Below are positions 7,449-21,181 of a stretch of 64,000 nucleotides of DNA, one piece after another (positions within the stretch are counted from its first letter, which is position 1; each line of letters opens with the position of its first letter). This stretch comes from an uncultured bacterium (GTDB taxonomy: Bacteria > Patescibacteriota > Minisyncoccia > Phycocordibacterales > CAIZLB01), in assembly GCA_903848795.1 (NCBI GenBank), contig CAINHC010000021.1:11309-75308 (forward strand), read 5' to 3'. Under the pieces are notes generated by a model. That model did not search any database and was not told where the DNA came from. It worked only from the letters and a program-made list of their open reading frames with translations. Both the position numbers and the translations under genes were made by a program.

Positions 7449-8036
7449 TTAATTATACAACACCATCTCCGTTATTTCCAACATCTCTCCATCTGACCCC
7501 TTAAATCTTTCATCAAAGGTCTTTTTACCAGTTTCAACAAAACCTTGTTTTTTATAAAAGCCCACCCCTCGGGAGTTAAGGGAAAATACATCTAAATACG
7601 TATCTTTGTTTTTATCCAACAAACCGTGTGCTTTATCATACAATTCTTTAGCAAGCCCTTGACCCTTGAATTCTGGCATGACATACAAAGCCTCTATTGT
7701 ATTTTTATCTTCATGTTTTTCAGCAAAACAACATCCGACAACTTTTTCTTCATCTTTCCCATCGTTGTCATTAGTCATTTTTGCGACCATAAGAATATTA
7801 TCATCCGTAAAATTAGCAATGCCTTTTTCCAACCCCTCGGCTGCCTTTTGTGCTTTTTCTGGAGGAAAATGATTATTTATCTCCTCCTCCGACCAACCGC
7901 AAAGTTTGTACATCCCTTTGGATGATTCAATTGTTAATGATTGGATACCATAGGCGTCGGAAGGGATAGCTTTTGATATTTTGACGTTGTTCATTTTATA
8001 TCTATTTATTAAGCGCATTCCTTGTTGCTGGACCAA
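7449..8036 (-). CDS. GNAT-family N-acetyltransferase
   Basis: Acetyl-CoA-binding region VMPEFKGQGLAKELYDKA...RGVGFYKKQGFVETG. The start overlaps the upstream gene, so the true start is probably an internal Met. Confidence 0.6.
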   Translation of the reverse strand: MVQQQGMRLINRYKMNNVKISKAIPSDAYGIQSLTIESSKGMYKLCGWSEEEINNHFPPEKAQKAAEGLEKGIANFTDDNILMVAKMTNDNDGKDEEKVVGCCFAEKHEDKNTIEALYVMPEFKGQGLAKELYDKAHGLLDKNKDTYLDVFSLNSRGVGFYKKQGFVETGKKTFDERFKGSDGEMLEITEMVLYN

Positions 8037-9255
8037 GCGCTCCTGTTTGTGTAAGCTTCTTCGCCTTTTGGAATTTCTTTACTGCGGTTTCAGTAAGTGG
8101 ACCAAACTTTCCATTAATAGGGCCGGTATAAAAATCTAGCTTCTTAAGTGTAGTTTGCAACTCAGTAACTTCCTTGCCAGTTGAACCACTCTTAATTGAA
8201 GTTGAGAATTTATATTTGGTTGCAGATACGGTTGTATTGGATGATTCCACTGATGTATTAACTACGGGATTTGCGACAACAGTGTTAGGAGTAGAAACTA
8301 CAGCAGGTGTGGGTACAGGAGTTGAAACCTGAGAAATATTATTTTGATCTAAAATTAAACTCATCTGTGCCGTTCTTCCATTAAAGTCATTCAACGCCAA
8401 AACTACTGGAATTGTTGATCCTTCATTCCCTGTCACAATATAACTTGAAGTATAAGGACTACTACCAGAAACACCAATTCTCTTTCCAGCAAAAGAAGCC
8501 CACGCAGTATTCACTTGATTTGGCTGATTTGCGCTGAAGCTAAGGGAGATGGTCGAACCAGGACTTAAAAAATTTCCGTTGACATTACTTGATGAAAGAG
8601 TAAATGACGAGAATGATATAGCGGGACTGTTGTTTGTATTTGTTTGATTAACTGCACCTGTATTAACAACTACAATTACTAAGTTTGAACACTGACCATC
8701 ACTTTCACAAACATTAAGAGTTGCACCACCAAAAGCATTAGCGTAGATGTTAACATTATTTCCATTTATTGTTGCTGCTACCACACTACTATTTGAATTA
8801 CTTGCTATACCATAGCCCCCATTGCCATTAAGCCCAATTGATAGACTTTGACCAACATTAAGAGTTATATTGTTTTGACTGAAAATCGGATAACCATTTG
8901 TGGTTGTGTTCGTTGAACATGTACTATTACCACTTGCTGACCATGGAATCATCAGGGATTGCTGATTGTTTACAATGACGTACGCTGTTTGATTACAACC
9001 CGCGAGATTGTGCGTATTTGAACCAAAGGTCGTAGAAAAATTACCATTCTGATCTGTCGAACCAACGTAAGCAGACGATCCTCCAAAATGAAGATCGATG
9101 AGCGAGTTGGGATCTCCATAAACTGTTATCTTGCTCATTGTATTATCCACTGGGCTCAGGGACAATGTTGGAATAACGGATGCATTTGCCTTGGAAGCAA
9201 GCAAAAAAAGTATTCCAAAAAGTACCAATAATAAATTATTTTTAATAGTTTTCAT
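8002..9255 (-). CDS. Secreted Asn/Ser/Thr-rich surface protein with C-terminal peptidoglycan-binding domain
   Basis: Signal peptide MKTIKNNLLLVLFGILFLLASKANA; low-complexity N/S/T-rich body; C-terminal PG_binding_1 motif (TELQTTLKKLDFYTGPINGKFGPLTETAVKKFQ...TGALG). Confidence 0.55.
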   Translation of the reverse strand: MKTIKNNLLLVLFGILFLLASKANASVIPTLSLSPVDNTMSKITVYGDPNSLIDLHFGGSSAYVGSTDQNGNFSTTFGSNTHNLAGCNQTAYVIVNNQQSLMIPWSASGNSTCSTNTTTNGYPIFSQNNITLNVGQSLSIGLNGNGGYGIASNSNSSVVAATINGNNVNIYANAFGGATLNVCESDGQCSNLVIVVVNTGAVNQTNTNNSPAISFSSFTLSSSNVNGNFLSPGSTISLSFSANQPNQVNTAWASFAGKRIGVSGSSPYTSSYIVTGNEGSTIPVVLALNDFNGRTAQMSLILDQNNISQVSTPVPTPAVVSTPNTVVANPVVNTSVESSNTTVSATKYKFSTSIKSGSTGKEVTELQTTLKKLDFYTGPINGKFGPLTETAVKKFQKAKKLTQTGALGPATRNALNK

Positions 9256-12122: not shown

Positions 12123-13157
12123 TTATTCAGGTTGGCCCTCTGTAATCATCTTCTTTATTTCCTTATCAAAATCAGAATCAATTTTCTGATACTTATTAAA
12201 TTCTTTGTATTCAGAAATGGCTTTTTCGTCTGCATCTAGCTTGGAAATCTTCCCCTTACCATCCAAAACTTCATATTTATTGAATGTCAAAAATTGGTCA
12301 ACACTCTCTGCAAACTCTTTCATTGTAAAAGCATTACTTCTTTCTATTAGTCCCTCAATGTAATCAAAAAAGCCTGTAACTGTTCTTTCCAGTTTTTTAA
12401 TCTCACTTTCTTTTAAATAATTCTTTGCGATGGTAACATCAGATTGTAATACCCTACCTGTAGGAGATTTTTTCCAAGTTGTAAGACCCATATATGGCAA
12501 GGTTGCATCTGCCTTGTCATAAATTATTTCAGGTGCTGTTTTCCCAGTGATTGCAAAGTGAAATTTATTTTGAACCATAGCATAAAATTCATGACTCACA
12601 TCAGAATCTCTATCGTAATCGATACTACACTCGGCAAATATGTCTGTAATTTGTTGGTAAATTCGACGCTCGCTTGTCCTAATGGAGCGAACTCGTTCCA
12701 ACAATTCTCTAAAATAATCAACTCCGAATGTCTTCTCGCCCTGTTTCAAACGATCATCATCAAGCACGAACCCTTTTTTAATAAATTCACGAAGTACTTG
12801 GGTCGCCCAAATACGAAAATATGTGGCCTTTTTGGAGTTTATCCTATAACCTACGGCAATAATGACATCGAGGTTGTAATGTACAATTTCTCTGGAAACC
12901 TCTCTATTAGCCTCATTTTGAACTATTAGGAATTTCCTAATAGTTGCCAATTCCGATAATTCTTGAGATGAATAAATGTTCTTAAGGTGTTCATGTATTG
13001 TAGGGATAGAAACATCAAAAAGCTCTGCGATAAGCTTTTGAGTTAACCAAATTGTTTCCCCTTCTATTCTGACCTCAATTTTAGGCATCCCCGCCTCATT
13101 GCCAAACATGAGAAATTGAGCAATTTTATTATTTTTAGTGACATGATTTTCTTTCAT
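12123..13157 (-). CDS. RhuM-family protein (virulence protein RhuM-like), paralogue 1
   Basis: Family signature YNLDVIIAVGYRINSKKATYFRIWATQVLREFI...TSERRIYQQITDIF; HTH-like N-terminus. Confidence 0.7.
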   Translation of the reverse strand: MKENHVTKNNKIAQFLMFGNEAGMPKIEVRIEGETIWLTQKLIAELFDVSIPTIHEHLKNIYSSQELSELATIRKFLIVQNEANREVSREIVHYNLDVIIAVGYRINSKKATYFRIWATQVLREFIKKGFVLDDDRLKQGEKTFGVDYFRELLERVRSIRTSERRIYQQITDIFAECSIDYDRDSDVSHEFYAMVQNKFHFAITGKTAPEIIYDKADATLPYMGLTTWKKSPTGRVLQSDVTIAKNYLKESEIKKLERTVTGFFDYIEGLIERSNAFTMKEFAESVDQFLTFNKYEVLDGKGKISKLDADEKAISEYKEFNKYQKIDSDFDKEIKKMITEGQPE

Positions 13158-13506: not shown

Positions 13507-13878
13507 CTATTTTGTAACGCAATTCTTGTATGTCATATTATCCTGACTACCTTCTGTTACAAAAGCGGTATTTCCCTTATTCCAAAAAACTATCGATTCA
13601 TCATCGTTAGCGTAACGAGCGCCAGAGGCAGAAATTGTCTGAGGCAAGAATAATTCTGGACCACCACTTAGAGTTACGTAAGTTGCGCTTTTATAAAAGA
13701 TGGCGTGTATATTTTTGTTACCCTCGCACTGAAATACGACATCACTAACCTTATTCCCCAATACTTCTTGTACGCCAAGCTTTTTACCTAGAAAAATACC
13801 GAGTCCAAAAACTCCAACGAATAATATAATTGCCACGGTTTGTGAAAGCCGGGTGACTTTGTTCCATTTAATTTTCAT
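13507..13878 (-). CDS. MliC-like (membrane-bound lysozyme inhibitor of C-type lysozyme family) membrane-anchored protein
   Basis: N-terminal signal/anchor; two Cys (FQCEG ... YKNCV) bracketing SASGARYANDDESIVFWNKGNTAFV, matching the MliC SGSGAxY...FWxKG core. Confidence 0.5.
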   Translation of the reverse strand: MKIKWNKVTRLSQTVAIILFVGVFGLGIFLGKKLGVQEVLGNKVSDVVFQCEGNKNIHAIFYKSATYVTLSGGPELFLPQTISASGARYANDDESIVFWNKGNTAFVTEGSQDNMTYKNCVTK

Positions 13879-14044: not shown

Positions 14045-15784
14045 CTACAGAACATCATTTAAAGATCTAAAACCAAAAGTTTGATATTTATTTTTTAAAA
14101 TCGATGGACCTGGCCATTTACTATCATGCTTTTTTCTTTCTTCTGTGTACCAATCTATAATATTTGTTGGTTTATAACCTTCGGGTATCTTATTCCACGC
14201 GTCCCTAACTTCTTCAGCCCAATCTTCGTATTGCAAGAAAGTCATTTTATACTTTTCCTTTCCGATCAGATCATAAAAGGGTTTTCGTCCAAAATTTGAA
14301 TATTTTTCTTTTAAGCTACCAACCTTAGGCCATGTTTTACTGTGCTCTCTTTTTCTTTCTTGTTCATACCAACTCCACAAACTTCTTGGTCTTTCATTTT
14401 CTGGTAACTGACTCCATGCGCTTACAACTTCCTTTAACCAATCTTCATATGGAAGGTAATCCTTATCTCTATAATTATCTTTACCCACAACATCATTCAC
14501 AGATTTAAAACCATGAATTGAATATCGTTTTTTTAATCTTGAATAACTAGGCCAAGTCTTATTGTGATTAACACGTTTTTCCTCGCCGTACCAATCTTCC
14601 ATATCTCTTTGTTTCTCATGCTCCGGTACCTTACCCCGCGCATCCTTAACTTCTCTGGACCAATCCTCATATGGAAGATAATCCTTATCTAAATGATTTT
14701 CCCTACCAACAGCGGTCGTCAACGTTGTAAACCCATAGGGAGAATATTTTATTTTTAGTATTTTTGAACTTGGCCAGGCATTATGACTCTTTCTTTTTTT
14801 GTTATACCATTTTTCAATATCACCTTTTTTTTCTTTATCTGACGTTTCGTCCCATGCGATTTTAACTTCCTCAGACCAATCTTCATATGGTAAATGCTTT
14901 ACACGTTCTCTTTTAAAAAATTCTGATTGCAAGAACCCCTCAGATAAAGCCTCATCACTTATAGATCCTTCTTGTTCCGGTAGTTCCTCTTCAAGATATA
15001 TCTTAATCTTGTTTCTCCAATTTAATGTTTGTATTATTCGTACCCCAATACCTGGATACATAGCAATGAGTGAATTTTTATCTTGCTTTCCATCAATATC
15101 CAAATCATCGAGTTGGATATGAAGCTCTTGCAATTTTTGTGTATCAAAAACATAACTCGCATTACCTTCTTCATCACATATATATACGGCTCGATTAAGT
15201 TCAGGCACAATAACTCTTACATACGGAGTTTTTCTAATCATCTCATCTTTTACCTCACCCTCTAGTACTAGCATTTGTTCTATATCTCTTATATCAATAT
15301 CAAAGTCTGTTTCAAGAATATACATAAGAGTCAGAAGTCTTGGTATAAACTTCTTCTTTTCAAAAGGAGTATCACCAGGAATTATTCCTTGATTCTCCAA
15401 TTGATCAGGTGGAGTGATGATTGTTTCTGTTTTTTCCTTTGACCCCTGAATGCTTATCTTGACGGCGTCAATCTTTGCTTTAACTTCCTGAATACGATCT
15501 AATATTTCTGAAATGTTTGGTAATTCAAGTTTTTTACATACATCGTCTTCTTGTTCCTGAGTATTTAAAGATAAATTACCTTCAAGATTAGGGTTGGTCT
15601 TATATTCATGAAGCAAGTCATTAATAAGTTCGATTGTATCGCTTACAGCTTCGTCTGCAAAAGATTCTATGTTTTCGACAGTAAGGGGTTTGTATAAAAT
15701 ACCATTTAGTCTTTTAATCGATTCCTCTTTTAAGACTTCAAGAGATTTATATAACTCTACCTGTTTAAATGGATTTTCTAACAT
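14045..15784 (-). CDS. Hypothetical protein with four C-terminal ~65-aa Trp-rich tandem repeats
   Basis: Repeat consensus YEDW.EEV..AW.........WY.EERK.H..TWP....LK.KY..FGF.S.NDV.G, four copies over aa ~300-579; N-terminal 300 aa unassigned. Confidence 0.5.
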   Translation of the reverse strand: MLENPFKQVELYKSLEVLKEESIKRLNGILYKPLTVENIESFADEAVSDTIELINDLLHEYKTNPNLEGNLSLNTQEQEDDVCKKLELPNISEILDRIQEVKAKIDAVKISIQGSKEKTETIITPPDQLENQGIIPGDTPFEKKKFIPRLLTLMYILETDFDIDIRDIEQMLVLEGEVKDEMIRKTPYVRVIVPELNRAVYICDEEGNASYVFDTQKLQELHIQLDDLDIDGKQDKNSLIAMYPGIGVRIIQTLNWRNKIKIYLEEELPEQEGSISDEALSEGFLQSEFFKRERVKHLPYEDWSEEVKIAWDETSDKEKKGDIEKWYNKKRKSHNAWPSSKILKIKYSPYGFTTLTTAVGRENHLDKDYLPYEDWSREVKDARGKVPEHEKQRDMEDWYGEEKRVNHNKTWPSYSRLKKRYSIHGFKSVNDVVGKDNYRDKDYLPYEDWLKEVVSAWSQLPENERPRSLWSWYEQERKREHSKTWPKVGSLKEKYSNFGRKPFYDLIGKEKYKMTFLQYEDWAEEVRDAWNKIPEGYKPTNIIDWYTEERKKHDSKWPGPSILKNKYQTFGFRSLNDVL

Positions 15785-16106
15785 ATTTACATTTTATCCT
15801 AGATATCGGTTATTATAAAGGCTTCTCTATTTTTTCCAACGCCTGTCTCGCTTAAGACAAATCAGCTTTATCTCCGTTTGACAACCTATCGCCGTATTCT
15901 TCTGGCGCCATTATTATCGCAATCTTTTTTCTTAATACCTCTTCATGCCCCCATTCAGATCGTTTTATCATAAGAACATTGCGATTATTTATAGCACAGG
16001 ACTAACGATTTAAAATATTAAGACTGCAAGTTGCTTCAACCCAGTAGGCAACAATCCACCCAAAATACCTCGAAGAATATAGTTTTAAAAAAACAATTAC
16101 AGACAT

Positions 16107-16856
16107 CTACAAAACCCTAAATACATAACCTTCTTTCTTCAATTTAGTTACTATTTCTTCTATTGCAACGTATGTGGCCGGCGCGTTCGGACCACCCAAA
16201 TGCATGATTATTACCGATTTATCATGAACTCCACTCAACACCGCTTTGACAATACCTTTCGAATTCTTATTAAAAGAATCTCCCGACGTTAGCCCAGCGT
16301 CAGAAACAGTTAATCCAATTTTTTGGGCCAATAGATCATCTTGTTGATTATGGCAAAGACCTGGATGGCGGAAATATTTTGGAACAACGCCCGTGAGTGC
16401 TGTAAGAATTCTTTGGGTCTTTTGCATTTCCTCAATTTTATCTTCATCTGTATTGATAATTTTTAACTTATAGCAGGGCGACTCAAAACCAGGGTGATCG
16501 TATGAGTGATTAGCAATTTCAATATCTGGATATTTAGCAATTTCCCTTATCAAATCTGGATATACCTCAGCGAACATTCCAGTAACAAAAATCGTGGAGG
16601 GAATCTTTTCACTTTCTAAATAATTAACAAGATCTTTACTATAATAATCAGAAACTTTTTTCTCATCCAACTTCTTTTTCATAAATGGTGTCATGTCGGC
16701 ATCGAATGTGAGATACACCACTTTTGATTTTGATACCTGAATTTCAGCCTTACTTTCAGCATCGCTTTCTACTTTTTTTGTATGTAAAATATAGAAGACG
16801 ATGCAAATCAAAATCGCCAGAATAACCGCAAAGATGATTTTTCTATTTCTAATCAT
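16107..16856 (-). CDS. Polysaccharide deacetylase (CE4, NodB homology domain), membrane-anchored
   Basis: N-terminal TM; TFDADMTP and NHSYDHP motifs. Confidence 0.65.
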   Translation of the reverse strand: MIRNRKIIFAVILAILICIVFYILHTKKVESDAESKAEIQVSKSKVVYLTFDADMTPFMKKKLDEKKVSDYYSKDLVNYLESEKIPSTIFVTGMFAEVYPDLIREIAKYPDIEIANHSYDHPGFESPCYKLKIINTDEDKIEEMQKTQRILTALTGVVPKYFRHPGLCHNQQDDLLAQKIGLTVSDAGLTSGDSFNKNSKGIVKAVLSGVHDKSVIIMHLGGPNAPATYVAIEEIVTKLKKEGYVFRVL

Positions 16857-16862
16857 ATTAAG

Positions 16863-17885
16863 CTATTTATCAGATACATTCTTAACTTTCTTCTCAATCC
16901 TCTTTTGAACACTCCTGATCGTCTCCAAATAGGCTTCTTCTACTGGTGAAAGAGTTTTTACTTGATACTTCTTGTATTCAGTCTTGGCTTTTTCTAATGC
17001 TTGTTCATGACTTACGTTTCCAGAATCTTTAAGTAAACCCTTCCCATAATTTTCAGTAAATTTATCAAGTTCACTGACCCAGTCCGCCATATACATCTTT
17101 GTATGTTCTTGTGCTTTGATTTCAGCAAGATCAAAGAAGGCTGACACTAAACGATTAAGTCTAAAAAGTTCTTCTTCCGTGAGATAGTTTTTTGCAATCC
17201 CAACTTCAGAAAATACAGGTTGTGCACCAGAAAATGTTGTTAATCCCATAAAGTCCTTTTCTGCATCAGCTCGTGAATGAATTGTTTCAGCAGCAGTGTG
17301 TTTATTGGTAGCATAATGCAATTTATTTTGCACCGTTTTAAAGAACTTAATTGACTCCTGACTGTGGGGATCGTAATCCATACTAGTTGAATACAAATCA
17401 AGCACTTGACGATAGAGCACCTTTTCGCTACTTCTGATATCACGAATACGTTCCAAAAGTTCTTTCCAATAGTTTCCGCCTCCAGTACCTTTGAGGCGTT
17501 CATCGTCCATAGTAAATCCCTTGATAATGTATTCACGAAGCCTGGCTGTTGCCCACTGTCTGAAACGCGTACCCTGTATAGAGCTTACACGATATCCAAC
17601 AGATATGATTACATCGAGGTTATAGTAATTTGTAGGCTTCGTAGAAAAATCGGAAATTCCAATTTTTCTTATAGTACCGTATTCTATGAGCTCTTTTTCC
17701 GAGTAAATATTAAGAATATGTTCATTTATCGTTGAACGACTTTTATTGAATAATTCTGCCATTTGATCAATAGTAAGCCACACCGTCTCATTTTCAAAAC
17801 GGACCTCAAACTTTGGCTGACCATTGTCGCCTTCGTAAATAACTATTTCATTGTTAGATTTGTTAAATTCCATATCTTTTATCAT
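16863..17885 (-). CDS. RhuM-family protein, paralogue 2
   Basis: YNLDVIISVGYRVSSIQGTRFRQWATARLREYI...SSEKVLYRQVLDLY; ~50% identity to paralogues 1 and 3. Confidence 0.7.
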   Translation of the reverse strand: MIKDMEFNKSNNEIVIYEGDNGQPKFEVRFENETVWLTIDQMAELFNKSRSTINEHILNIYSEKELIEYGTIRKIGISDFSTKPTNYYNLDVIISVGYRVSSIQGTRFRQWATARLREYIIKGFTMDDERLKGTGGGNYWKELLERIRDIRSSEKVLYRQVLDLYSTSMDYDPHSQESIKFFKTVQNKLHYATNKHTAAETIHSRADAEKDFMGLTTFSGAQPVFSEVGIAKNYLTEEELFRLNRLVSAFFDLAEIKAQEHTKMYMADWVSELDKFTENYGKGLLKDSGNVSHEQALEKAKTEYKKYQVKTLSPVEEAYLETIRSVQKRIEKKVKNVSDK

Positions 17886-18022: not shown

Positions 18023-19318
18023 TCAGAACCGTTTTGATGCTAGGTAAGAAAAAATAGCTGCAAGCAGACAAACAGCCCCGCCAAGTATAATAGGCATTCG
18101 TGCACCCATAGCGTCCGCAAGCCATCCAGAAAGTGGTCCGCCAACAGCACCCGATCCAGTTAAAAAGATTCCTTGAAGCGCCATCAATCGCCCGTGCATT
18201 TCTTGTTTTGATTCGACTTGAATCATTGTAGTTGTTGCTGTCATGTATAAAATACTAGACGCTCCCACAAGAAAAATAATTGGTATAGCTACTAAGACAC
18301 TAGGAGAAAGTGCGAGCATCAGCATGCTAATACCAAGCATTGTAGCACCAAAGATAATATGATTCATTTTAACTAATCCCCTACGAGCTACAACAAGGGC
18401 ACTTATGACAGCTCCGACACTAAAAACTGAATAAAGAAGTGTAAAGTTACCGATCGTACCATGAAGGCCCCTGGTTACAAACAATGGAAAAGTAGTGGTA
18501 AAATTGTATGCAATCGTTCCAATAAAAGCGAGCATGCCAAAGTTTATCGCCAATAATGGCATAGAAAAAATATATTTTATACCTTCACCTACTCTACCTT
18601 TTGTTTTAGTAATCTCTGACTTTCGATACAGTTCCGAAGGTCGCATCATCATAAGACAAATTAAAACTGCAATATAGGAAATAGCGTCAAAGGTAAAACA
18701 CCAACCAAAGCCCACCGTAATAATTAGAAGCCCCGCAATCGCTGGGCCTAATATTCGTGACAAATTAACATTTGTACTATAAAGCACCACTGCATTTGGA
18801 ATATCATGTTTAGGGACCATTTCGCTTAAGAAAGATAGGCGAAGTGGATTATCCAATGAAAGCACTATTCCTCCAACAAATGCTAATGCATATAATCCAA
18901 AGAGTGGCGGATGTGGCATAAAAGCCAAAACAGCAAGACCTACAGATTGTACCATCTCCAAACTCTGTGTCCAAATAAGCAGACGTCGCTTATCAAATTT
19001 ATCAGCAATAGATCCTGCCCACAATGAAAGAAATAGTATCGGGCCATACTGTAGAGCAGAAACTATTCCAACAGAAAGACCGCTTTCAGTAATTTTCAAA
19101 ACTAGCAAAGTAAGGGCGATTTTTGTTAGCCAATTACCAGTATTTGAAATAGTTTGTCCTATTGTGAATAACCTATAGTTGCGATTCCTGAGCGATATAA
19201 AAGTCTTCAAAAATGTTTCTTTGTATTTAGGTGGTGCAAATAGTTTTTGGTTCATATAAAAAAATGTCAAAAAAACAAGCCTCGAGATCTCCAAGTTATT
19301 CTGGATTATTCCCTTCAA
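18023..19318 (-). CDS. MFS-family transporter
   Basis: 12 predicted TM helices in MFS-typical 6+6 layout, with a characteristic loop (DKFDKRRLL). Confidence 0.6.
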   Translation of the reverse strand: MKGIIQNNLEISRLVFLTFFYMNQKLFAPPKYKETFLKTFISLRNRNYRLFTIGQTISNTGNWLTKIALTLLVLKITESGLSVGIVSALQYGPILFLSLWAGSIADKFDKRRLLIWTQSLEMVQSVGLAVLAFMPHPPLFGLYALAFVGGIVLSLDNPLRLSFLSEMVPKHDIPNAVVLYSTNVNLSRILGPAIAGLLIITVGFGWCFTFDAISYIAVLICLMMMRPSELYRKSEITKTKGRVGEGIKYIFSMPLLAINFGMLAFIGTIAYNFTTTFPLFVTRGLHGTIGNFTLLYSVFSVGAVISALVVARRGLVKMNHIIFGATMLGISMLMLALSPSVLVAIPIIFLVGASSILYMTATTTMIQVESKQEMHGRLMALQGIFLTGSGAVGGPLSGWLADAMGARMPIILGGAVCLLAAIFSYLASKRF

Positions 19319-20315
19319 TTATTTTCTTTACTTCACGGTCAAAATCAGAAATGTAATTTTTGTCCTGTTCTATGCGGTATTTTTCATATTCACCAAGCGC
19401 CAAGGATTCTGCAACCTCATGACTAATCTTACCAGCATTAGTCAATATTTCATACTCACTGAAATTAAGAAAGGCGTTGAGTTTTTCTATCCAATCCGAC
19501 ATTGTCATTGCTTTACCTCGAGATGCTTGCATTTCGGCGTAGTCTAAATACATATTACCAATACGATTTAGATGATCTAACTCATTTTTATTCAAATAAT
19601 TTTTTGCTATAGTCACGTCGCTTGGCATTATTTTACCCTGCGGATATTTACGCCACGAAGTCAAACCTAGTTTTTCCTTTTTACGGCTCACTCTTTCCGC
19701 AACAATTTCTGCCGCCGTTCTACCGGTAATAGCAAAGTGTAGTTTATTTTGCACTGTTGCAAAAAATTCCTTACTTTCAAACGACTTTGGAGAATAGTCA
19801 ATCGCTGTTGCGTATATGTCTGTAATTTTTTGATATATTCTACGTTCACTCGTACGAATATCTTGTATTTCTTCATAAAGCTCATCAAAATACCGTGCGC
19901 TAAAACGAGAGCCATATTTCATACGGTCACTATCCAATGCATAACCTTTTTGGATATAACTTTTCAAAACACCAGTTGCCCATCTTCTAAATTCTGAACC
20001 TCTTTCAGAATTAACCCTATAGCCAACAGCGATGACAAGCTCGAGGCTATAACAGACGACCTTACGAACAACCTCCCTTTTCCCCTCTTTTTGAACTACC
20101 GAGAATTCCTCGGTAGTTGCATTTTTATCAAGCTCGTTCTCATTATGTATGTTCTTAATATGAAGAGACACATTGTCTGTTGAACAATCAAATAATTCTG
20201 ATATTTTTCGTAAGGTTAGCCACATATTATTCACGTCATACAAGACCTCAATATTTACCCTACCATCTTGAGATTGATAAAACGCTATTTCATTGTCTTT
20301 TATCTTTTTTATCAT
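19296..20315 (-). CDS. RhuM-family protein, paralogue 3
   Basis: YSLELVIAVGYRVNSERGSEFRRWATGVLKSYI...TSERRIYQKITDIY. Confidence 0.7.
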   Translation of the reverse strand: MIKKIKDNEIAFYQSQDGRVNIEVLYDVNNMWLTLRKISELFDCSTDNVSLHIKNIHNENELDKNATTEEFSVVQKEGKREVVRKVVCYSLELVIAVGYRVNSERGSEFRRWATGVLKSYIQKGYALDSDRMKYGSRFSARYFDELYEEIQDIRTSERRIYQKITDIYATAIDYSPKSFESKEFFATVQNKLHFAITGRTAAEIVAERVSRKKEKLGLTSWRKYPQGKIMPSDVTIAKNYLNKNELDHLNRIGNMYLDYAEMQASRGKAMTMSDWIEKLNAFLNFSEYEILTNAGKISHEVAESLALGEYEKYRIEQDKNYISDFDREVKKIIEGNNPE

Positions 20316-20967: not shown

Positions 20968-21109
20968 GCGTTAATAATAACATCATCAATAATCAAAGCA
21001 AGCAACATTCTATTGAATAAACTGACCTTATCACAAACCACCATGCAAGAAGTTCTGACGTTCAAGACGCTTATTATAAAAAGGCTTGAAACAAAGGCGG
21101 AAATACCGG

Positions 21110-21181
21110 CTGGGAGACTAGGAATCGAACCTAGATTAAAAGCTTCAAAGGCTTCTGTCCTACCGTTAGACGATCTCCCAA
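21110..21181 (-). tRNA. tRNA-Gln (anticodon UUG)
   Basis: The reverse complement gives a 7-bp acceptor stem GGGAGAT/GTCTCCC, T-loop GGTTCGATTCC, and anticodon loop CTTTGAA (U-UUG-A). No encoded CCA. Confidence 0.8.

Follow-up and report, generated by a model that had tools for sequence, protein, structure and literature searches.

The minus strand of the window, by which we mean the whole 64,000-nucleotide stretch of DNA that was analysed, carries at positions 14045..15784 a gene for a two-part protein of 579 amino acids. Comparison of sequence profiles assigns the four tandem units of its C-terminal half to a diverged subtype of the Pfam family PF14882 INT_rpt ('Integrase repeat unit', formerly PHINT_rpt), and these units are joined to a conserved N-terminal domain (N-domain). 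The less ordinary part of the protein is this N-domain, which is well folded, has no known match and is found almost only in bacteria of the candidate phyla radiation (CPR, Patescibacteria). The 579-aa reading frame had been delimited in an earlier note made from the DNA letters, and its position holds: it starts with ATG, which is preceded in frame by just 3 open codons, and ends with a stop codon at 14047-14045. A six-frame scan with HMMs for the N-domain and for the repeat unit detected solely this ORF, so that there is one copy in the window. The protein is acidic overall and its N-terminus, judged by eye, is without a hydrophobic signal-peptide-like or membrane-spanning segment. No match to the protein was obtained in Pfam, NCBIfam or PHROGs, whether it was used whole, as C-terminal fragment or as single units, and a PDB sequence search and a PADLOC scan were likewise empty.

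The repeat units start at amino acids 298, 370, 444 and 517, each with the sequence L-[PQ]-YEDW, and all are encoded on the minus strand: unit 1 (aa 298-369, 14678..14893), for which three helices and a short fourth are predicted, unit 2 (aa 370-443, 14456..14677), unit 3 (aa 444-516, 14237..14455) and unit 4 (aa 517-579, 14048..14236), which is without the linker tail and forms the C-terminal end of the protein. Pairwise identities of 37-49% and unit-versus-unit local alignment scores of 133-187, where shuffled sequences gave means near 30 (z 17-27), bear out the four tandem Trp-rich repeats that had been noticed earlier, whereas the repeat length of about 65 aa given at that time has to be corrected to a period of 72-74 aa, with a last unit of 63 aa. 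Across the four units 17 columns are invariant (L.YEDW..EV..A...WY...H...WP...LK..Y...G). From the skeleton that had been called invariant, YEDW, EV, WY, H, WP, LK and G are indeed present in all four units, whereas AW is present in three, ERK and TWP in two and FGF in only one. Tandem Repeats Finder did not detect any DNA-level tandem repeat in the gene, and the duplication of the units is therefore old. The C-terminal half is rich in aromatic residues (5.6% W, 7% Y).

The assignment to INT_rpt is based on profile-profile comparison and on full-length homologs, because a direct HMM-to-sequence match is lacking: the window protein, its C-terminal half, its single units and its five nearest relatives did not match PF14882 (gathering score 26.5 bits) even at E<=10. 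In contrast, 12 of 82 full-length homologs matched PF14882 at E<=0.01, and P0028 (37.7 bits) and P0052 (33.3 bits) lay above the gathering score. When the C-terminal half of the window protein was compared by BLASTP with the C-terminal halves of these two homologs, E values of 3e-17 (P0028) and 8.5e-18 (P0052) were obtained. Using hhalign, 24 units from the window clade aligned over 54 of 55 columns with 52 units of six helicases and integrases that are Pfam-positive (probability 96.3%, E 1.5e-9), and with the units of P0028 and P0052 the probability was 98.9% (E 2e-17). The profile of the family units, an alignment in which the four window units are the first rows, gave 99.2% (E 2e-19) against the INT_rpt units of Pfam-positive helicases and integrases. 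An HMM built from the six Pfam-positive proteins alone misses the window protein in HMM-to-sequence mode (-5.1 bits). A further HMM of 708 units from proteins listed as being without the N-domain scored the window at 46.8 bits, with a shuffle maximum of 10; this match was discounted because the set probably includes C-terminal fragments of the family, such as the short P0122 and P0126.

Canonical INT_rpt units and those of the window are both tandem helical units with the common order L-x-[FY]-E-[ED]...V...[WY]-Y...K...[WL]-P-S...Y...G-[WF]...[LV]-G. When the C-terminal INT_rpt signature P-S-x-P-x3-Y-x3-G-W-x-G-W-x2-[FL]-[LV]-G was sought in the window units, W-P, the Tyr and the first Gly were found to be kept in all four and the final Gly in three, whereas the second Pro of P-S-x-P and both Trp are missing and G-F-x-x-L stands in place of G-W-x-G-W. 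Unlike canonical units, with a period of about 55-64 aa (modal 64), those of the window insert 8-10 residues between helices 1 and 2 and add two residues past the W-P-S motif, and their array is joined to an orphan N-domain and not to a helicase, integrase or nuclease. The altered signature, the longer period and the missing direct match to PF14882 would be expected of a new repeat family, as the earlier note had suggested, but intermediates form a continuous series between the window subtype and the INT_rpt signature among the full-length homologs of one family, members of this family with units at the same position exceed the PF14882 cut-off, and whole-unit profile-profile probabilities reach 96-99%, which makes an undescribed family very improbable. 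The Pfam match that the same note had named as speaking against its suggestion was thus found indirectly, by way of homologs and profiles, and not as a direct hit. It is still harder to see in the units one of the helical DNA-binding repeats already known, be it the helicase-associated (HA, PF03457) domain or, for example, HNH_repeat (PF18780), and we consider this extremely improbable. INT_rpt arrays form C-terminal tails of SF2 helicases, as HA domains do; HA and INT_rpt are alike in being short helical modules with conserved Trp and Gly that are repeated beside helicase cores; and HNH_repeat occurs alongside INT_rpt in 2 of 66 proteins. Nevertheless, neither PF03457 nor PF18780 was listed for the window protein and the family members with Pfam results: HA does not figure among the matches of the window protein (E<=10) or of 27 relatives with full tables, and it is absent from the 18 families listed in the scan of 82 family members, in agreement with the earlier judgement that the resemblance to HA is not convincing. 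A search by sequence found INT_rpt in no solved structure, and no structure of it was known in 2021 (PMC8078820). A literature search for PF14882, INT_rpt or PHINT_rpt gave one list entry and no functional study.

The N-domain (aa 1-292, 14909..15784, minus strand) defines the family and is its conserved core, which had been under-read before. An AlphaFold2 model predicts a compact globular domain (pLDDT 90.3, pTM 0.87), in which a helical-bundle subdomain (aa 15-115, 15440..15742, minus strand; helices 15-30, 42-63, 75-85 and 91-115) is followed by a five-stranded alpha/beta subdomain (aa 148-265, 14990..15343, minus strand). Seventeen residues of the N-domain are invariant in the family and most of them are located in the alpha/beta subdomain, namely R149, Y155, D160, G176, R184, Y188, R198, Y201, C203, E205, N208, F213, D229, K233, G247 and W256. 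Conservation within the family is highest in a signature beta-hairpin, Y-I-C-D-E-E-G-N-A-S-Y-V-F-D (aa 201-214, 15143..15184, minus strand), which is acidic in its C-D-E-E-G-N part. Among the conserved basic residues, R149, R184, R198 and K233 are invariant and R190 and R257 near-invariant. The acidic character that had been ascribed to the N-terminal half is evident from a net charge of -24 over aa 1-297 and of about -24 for the N-domain. As to its supposed coiled-coil-like nature, this applies at best to the segment from about 62 to about 148, mostly helix 91-115, which gave faint coiled-coil-type PDB matches (E 0.05-10), and otherwise the model is that of a compact globular domain. Searches with the N-domain gave no match in Pfam, the PDB or the viral structures of BFVD, and no relation to helicases, recombinases or nucleases was detected. 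A reading of the hairpin as part of a PD-(D/E)xK nuclease was dropped, the candidate Lys, K217, being conserved to only 69% and the spacing being atypical, and a faint match of P0086 to PF27226 (AF_1845) was disregarded.

A total of 137 proteins with the N-domain were collected, nearly all of them from CPR bacteria. INT_rpt arrays of 1-9 units are present in 110 of these, whereas in 12 an unrelated repeat of about 80 aa takes their place and 8 have a third type of repeat. The 80-aa repeat of P0119 lies above the gathering scores of HTH_11, HTH_8, HTH_28 and HTH_23. Where the INT_rpt array otherwise sits, P0119, P0072 and others bear arrays of this module, with its HTH score in P0119, which recall HTH/winged-helix arrays; the INT_rpt unit itself, with its modelled three helices and short fourth, is of HTH-like size. 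A search with the unit profile yielded 948 representative proteins at E<=0.001. Among matches without the N-domain, 43 of 66 are Pfam INT_rpt-positive (best E 5.9e-115), and their partner domains are ResIII (24), Helicase_C (27), DEAD (21), SWI2_SNF2 (17), Integrase_2 (4), Phage_integrase (4), Mrr_cat_2 (4) and Mrr_cat (2). The array is C-terminal in SF2 helicases and Mrr-helicase fusions and N-terminal in Integrase_2 proteins. The window protein resembles INT_rpt-tailed SF2 (ResIII/DEAD) helicases, Mrr-helicase fusions and Integrase_2 proteins in combining one catalytic or effector domain with a row of modules, and it differs from all of these in that its effector is not detectably related to helicases, recombinases or nucleases. 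Also, helicases and integrases carry 5-11 modules, whereas the arrays of the N-domain family are shorter (1-9 units, 4 in the window protein) and less basic.

In the AlphaFold model of the array (pLDDT 91, pTM 0.51), the units are all-helical small bundles in which three helices are accompanied by a short fourth; as modelled, they are confidently folded and their orientation relative to each other is undefined. The aromatic residues occupy positions that are conserved like a hydrophobic core. Net charges of window units 1-4 are +1, +2, +4 and -1, and the mean unit net charge is +0.24 in the N-domain family versus +2.4 in proteins lacking the N-domain, which are mostly helicases and integrases and may include some family fragments.

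The reading that we favour, at about even odds, is that of a cytoplasmic, free-standing two-part protein in which the array of the INT_rpt subtype serves as a nucleic-acid tether that delivers the N-domain. Four small helical modules on short linkers (aa 298-579) would be arranged like beads on a string and might act as a multivalent tether of low specificity for nucleic acid, most likely DNA, which would hold the N-domain to its substrate. The activity, whatever its kind, would come from the N-domain, which could possibly bind a phosphate-rich ligand. What the analysis shows is that the repeats exist and are homologous to INT_rpt, together with the modelled folds, the order of the domains, the exchange of the array for other modules within the family and the range of taxa. 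That the array binds nucleic acid, and that the N-domain has an activity, we infer, and the tethering of an effector is argued solely from the architecture. A role of the array in nucleic-acid binding is suggested by INT_rpt partners that are DNA-acting enzymes (ResIII, integrases, Mrr) and, indirectly, by the fact that the same N-domain takes either INT_rpt or HTH-scoring arrays. The near-neutral family units and the acidic whole protein count against a nucleic-acid tether. With respect to the N-domain, it is conceivable, though we hold it only tentatively, that it is an undescribed fold or new family with an activity of its own that is sent to nucleic acid by at least three interchangeable types of array, at least two of them unrelated. 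If this is true, the family would be a natural case of one effector with swappable multivalent tethers and would provide a first functional context for INT_rpt. A role of INT_rpt as nucleic-acid-binding module is a testable idea and bears on numerous helicases, integrases and restriction-type nucleases in which the repeat occurs. The result itself is an incremental domain annotation that does not overturn current understanding, and it allows a clade of CPR 'hypothetical proteins' to be labelled as bearing diverged INT_rpt arrays missed by the Pfam model. The N-domain offers a compact, highly conserved and nearly CPR-restricted target for work on structure and function.

Several alternatives to a nucleic-acid tether were weighed. 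Of the two ligands guessed earlier from the composition of the repeats, nucleic acid is also favoured here, and glycan is unlikely because the units are all-helical, no signal-like stretch is seen by eye and the partners are cytoplasmic DNA enzymes. Listeria GW modules and choline-binding repeats bind glycan of the cell wall or other polymers of the envelope. The abundance of Trp and Tyr in the array, the presence of a polysaccharide deacetylase, an MliC-like protein and a PG_binding_1 protein among the window neighbours and the occurrence of PASTA alongside INT_rpt in 3 of 66 proteins could suggest that the units of the array do likewise. However, the aromatics lie at core-like positions and this neighbourhood is not kept at any other locus, and such a function appears highly doubtful. 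The array might instead be a scaffold that binds protein or RNA but not DNA, with the N-domain oligomerising via its helical bundle. This we consider unlikely, as the array is swapped in 12 family members for the repeat that scores as HTH in P0119 and INT_rpt is partnered by enzymes that act on DNA, among them integrases, Mrr nucleases and ResIII helicases.

Whatever is bound by the array, the gene could be a defence-related or mobile-element-associated accessory element and not a housekeeping factor. In line with such a role, a search for the near-invariant pattern Y[IVL]CDEE[GD]N, on which this count rests, found a sparse spread of 18 family loci in 185,579 species genomes, the gene context is variable, and helicases and nucleases of restriction type commonly bear INT_rpt. 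The gene is located among three RhuM-family paralogs in the window, and other family loci adjoin a TrwB/TraG-like ATPase, T4SS pilins, ParE or PemK. On the other hand, the N-domain was unmatched by PADLOC, which for nine other members gave only HTH-type or weak matches, relatives are absent from IMG/VR viral contigs and from phage records, many loci have housekeeping surroundings (gyrA, Mur ligases, transketolase, aminoacyl-tRNA synthetases), and over 26 loci, close relatives aside, no gene neighbour is conserved. An accessory role is thus judged to be quite unlikely. With unconserved neighbours and no viral or phage copies, the gene is read as cellular and stand-alone. In the 322-bp gap 5' of the ATG, a promoter-like site (TTGGAA-16-TATAAT, 15812..15839, minus strand) agrees with the consensus in 10 of 12 positions, a consensus match only, and promoter-like sites in the region are not in excess (7 observed versus 9.2 expected from shuffles). 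Together with an AGGA located about 13-16 nt ahead of the start codon, this candidate promoter is consistent with a free-standing transcription unit.

The 579-aa protein encoded at 14045..15784 (-) consists of two parts, a conserved, folded orphan N-domain followed by four INT_rpt modules (Pfam PF14882, 'Integrase repeat unit') in a flexible array. The ORF was present as an earlier note had claimed, and so were the four tandem units in its C-terminal half, at aa 298-369, 370-443, 444-516, and 517-579, with YEDW at aa 300, 372, 446, and 519, respectively; the repeat length given there as about 65 aa had to be corrected to a measured period of 72-74 aa. Pairwise identity among the four units is 37-49% and their local alignment scores were 133-187 versus shuffle means of about 30 (z 17-27). 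Across the four units 17 columns are invariant, but of the elements described as invariant in the note AW (3/4), ERK (2/4), TWP (2/4), and FGF (1/4) vary. No repeat at the DNA level was found, which makes the unit duplications old. The gene occurs as a single copy within the 64-kb window, and a promoter-like site and an AGGA upstream of the ATG are located inside a 322-bp gap.

Comparison of the window protein with Pfam, NCBIfam, PHROGs, and PDB yielded no match, and neither did comparison of each unit alone or of the C-terminal half alone with Pfam at E<=10. A search covering 5.8 billion protein clusters revealed 82 full-length homologs, all without names and labelled CPR (candidate-phyla-radiation bacteria) or 'bacterium'. 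Two of these homologs, P0028 (37.7 bits) and P0052 (33.3 bits), passed the Pfam gathering score for INT_rpt (26.5 bits), and 12 of the 82 matched INT_rpt at E<=0.01. With an iterated unit HMM, 261 units were detected across 75 of the 82 homologs (1-6 per protein; modal spacing 64 aa; consensus LSFEDFQKEVRSLYPGEGNVQKWYKKERKKHKNWPSNPKKTYKDKGWKGWPELVGKEN), and an alignment of 40 diverse units displays a gradation from the canonical W-P-S-x-P...G-W-x-G-W-x-E-L-V-G to the window subtype W-P-S...L-K-x-K-Y...G-F-x-x-L...V-G. Four comparisons served as non-circular tests, the first with 52 units from six proteins, each individually above Pfam's INT_rpt cut-off, as reference. When the 24 units of the window clade (P0001-P0008) were compared by hhalign with these 52 units, they matched over the full unit with a probability of 96.3% (E 1.5e-9), and the units of P0028 and P0052 with a probability of 98.9% (E 2e-17); the alignment of family units matched a comparison alignment of INT_rpt units with a probability of 99.2% (E 2e-19). 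BLASTP of the C-terminal half of the window protein gave E 8.5e-18 with that of P0052 and E 3e-17 with that of P0028. An HMM built from the six Pfam-positive proteins alone did not detect the window protein in an HMM-to-sequence comparison (-5.1 bits). An earlier HMM score of 46.8 bits was discounted, as the training set probably included C-terminal fragments of family proteins.

Judged from these alignments, the window repeat is very probably a diverged INT_rpt subtype, homologous yet beneath the reach of the Pfam model. The earlier note had proposed an undescribed repeat family, and the missing direct Pfam match might be read in this way, but homologs pass the INT_rpt cut-off and profile-profile matches to INT_rpt units reach probabilities of 96.3-99.2%, so that a truly new family is highly improbable. 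Even less credence is given to the idea that the units are helicase-associated (HA) domains or HNH_repeat; the loose resemblance to HA had already been regarded as unconvincing, and among the Pfam matches examined for this protein and its relatives none was to HA. What is new is a variant of a Pfam repeat already catalogued but functionally uncharacterised, a result of use for annotation.

When the unit profile was searched against 1.84 billion representative proteins, 948 were obtained at E<=0.001, and the N-domain was absent from 109 of the best 150 of these 948 matches. A Pfam scan of 66 of the 109 proteins found 43 to be INT_rpt-positive (best E 5.9e-115). Partners of INT_rpt elsewhere are SF2 helicases (ResIII, DEAD, SWI2/SNF2), integrases of the tyrosine-recombinase type, and nucleases of the Mrr type. 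In the literature searched, PF14882 appeared in list entries only, one published list having an entry for it as PHINT_rpt among repeat families without known structure, and none of the solved structures searched by sequence contains INT_rpt. AlphaFold2 modeling of aa 291-579 with the family alignment (pLDDT 91.0, pTM 0.51) predicts three helices and a short fourth one for every unit, and the modeled array resembles beads on a string in which unit-to-unit orientation is undefined.

The N-terminal half had been described as acidic and coiled-coil-like; it is acidic (net charge -24 over 297 aa), but it is more than a coiled coil, being a conserved folded domain according to AlphaFold2 (pLDDT 90.3, pTM 0.87). 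The model comprises a helical bundle (helices 15-30, 42-63, 75-85, and 91-115) and a five-stranded alpha/beta subdomain (aa 148-265), within which the near-invariant hairpin Y-I-C-D-E-E-G-N-A-S-Y-V-F-D is located. The domain is common to all 82 homologs, and 17 invariant residues (F42, R149, Y155, D160, G176, R184, Y188, R198, Y201, C203, E205, N208, F213, D229, K233, G247, and W256) also hold across 123 near-full-length members. No match to BFVD at E<=0.001 and no consistent match to PDB (profile search), PADLOC, or PHROGs was obtained. The N-domain is an undescribed family almost confined to CPR bacteria. In the homolog P0079, an N-terminal extension with a hydrophobic, membrane-spanning-like segment takes the place of the first ~100 N-domain residues; this protein may be a chimera arising from gene calling or assembly, or else a variant anchored in the membrane.

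A profile search gave 119 clusters which, together with 18 from the representative search, make up 137 N-domain proteins. An INT_rpt array (class A; 1-9 units, mode 3-4) is present in 110 of them, whereas 12 carry a ~80-aa repeat (class B; G-E-W-x-G-F-W-x-D...H-W-G...Y-C-Y-E), 8 a ~65-aa repeat (class C; K-E-G-W-E...P-E-W-F-E...H-Y-x-P-E-L-V), and 7, short or fragmentary, no array. In class B (P0018, P0063, P0065, P0072, P0078, P0100, P0104, P0107-P0109, P0111, and P0119) the INT_rpt array is replaced by the longer motif E-G-E-W-K-G-F-W-x-D-P-x-T-G-K-H-W-G...HTH...Y-C-Y-E-E-L. The P0119 repeat is above the gathering scores of HTH_11, HTH_8, HTH_28, and HTH_23; except for this HTH core, no Pfam family matched the class B repeat, which may itself be undescribed. 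The class C repeat (P0082, P0110, P0112-P0115, P0117, and P0118; longer motif K-E-G-W-E-S...F-A-E-x-Y-R-x-x-H-P-E-W-F-E...E-H-Y-x-P-E-L-V-K-I-I) did not match Pfam. Homology of INT_rpt to classes B and C was not detectable (probability ~4%), and classes B and C possibly have a common HTH core (probability 60%).

Among family members the array differs in unit number and other module types can take its place. The replacement of INT_rpt arrays by HTH-scoring arrays on the same N-domain is an indirect clue to INT_rpt function. The array might be a multivalent, low-specificity nucleic-acid tether, probably for DNA, that would position the N-domain, a reading to which about even chances are given; the N-domain in turn could bind a phosphate-rich ligand or be catalytic, as suggested by its invariant Arg/Lys and acidic hairpin. 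The mean net charge of family units is nearly neutral (+0.24) versus +2.4 in N-domain-less proteins, mostly helicases and integrases, which counts against this functional reading, as do the weak fold matches. A scaffold for protein or RNA would be another role for such an array, rather unlikely next to the helicases, integrases, and nucleases that INT_rpt accompanies elsewhere. Glycan binding, raised in the earlier note along with nucleic-acid binding because of the W/K/R/Y-rich composition (5.6% Trp and 7% Tyr in the C-terminal half), has very little probability.

That the gene is an accessory or defence element appears improbable, although its surroundings offer some hints. Three RhuM-family (PF13310) paralogs at 12123-13157 (-), 16863-17885 (-), and 19296-20315 (-), with mutual identities of 39-46%, lie within 8 kb and flank the studied gene on both sides, and such an unusual local concentration may be the sign of a region that is variable or accessory. 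At some other family loci, adjacent genes encode a TrwB/TraG-like coupling ATPase, T4SS pilins, or the toxins ParE/PemK (L006 6829-8658; L027 2013-3386 and 6993-7271; L005 3345-3671), which hints at a mobile or accessory context, but the pattern is inconsistent between loci. No conserved neighbour gene was found across 26 family loci, and there were no relatives in IMG/VR or phage records. A genome scan found 18 family loci in 185,579 species genomes, 17 of them in unclassified 'bacterium' or CPR-labelled assemblies (Paceibacterota, Nomura-, Moranii-, Falkow-, Kerfeld-, Gracilibacteria, and bins labelled Saccharibacteria) and one on a 2-kb contig in a Gammaproteobacteria bin, which is probably mis-binned. 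Envelope-related genes near the studied gene encode an MliC-like lysozyme-inhibitor domain protein (13507-13878 (-)), a polysaccharide deacetylase (16107-16856 (-)), and a PG_binding_1 protein (8002-9255 (-)); they are not conserved beside homologs at other loci. The sole RNA gene detected across the 64-kb window is a tRNA-Gln(TTG) at 21108-21180 (-).
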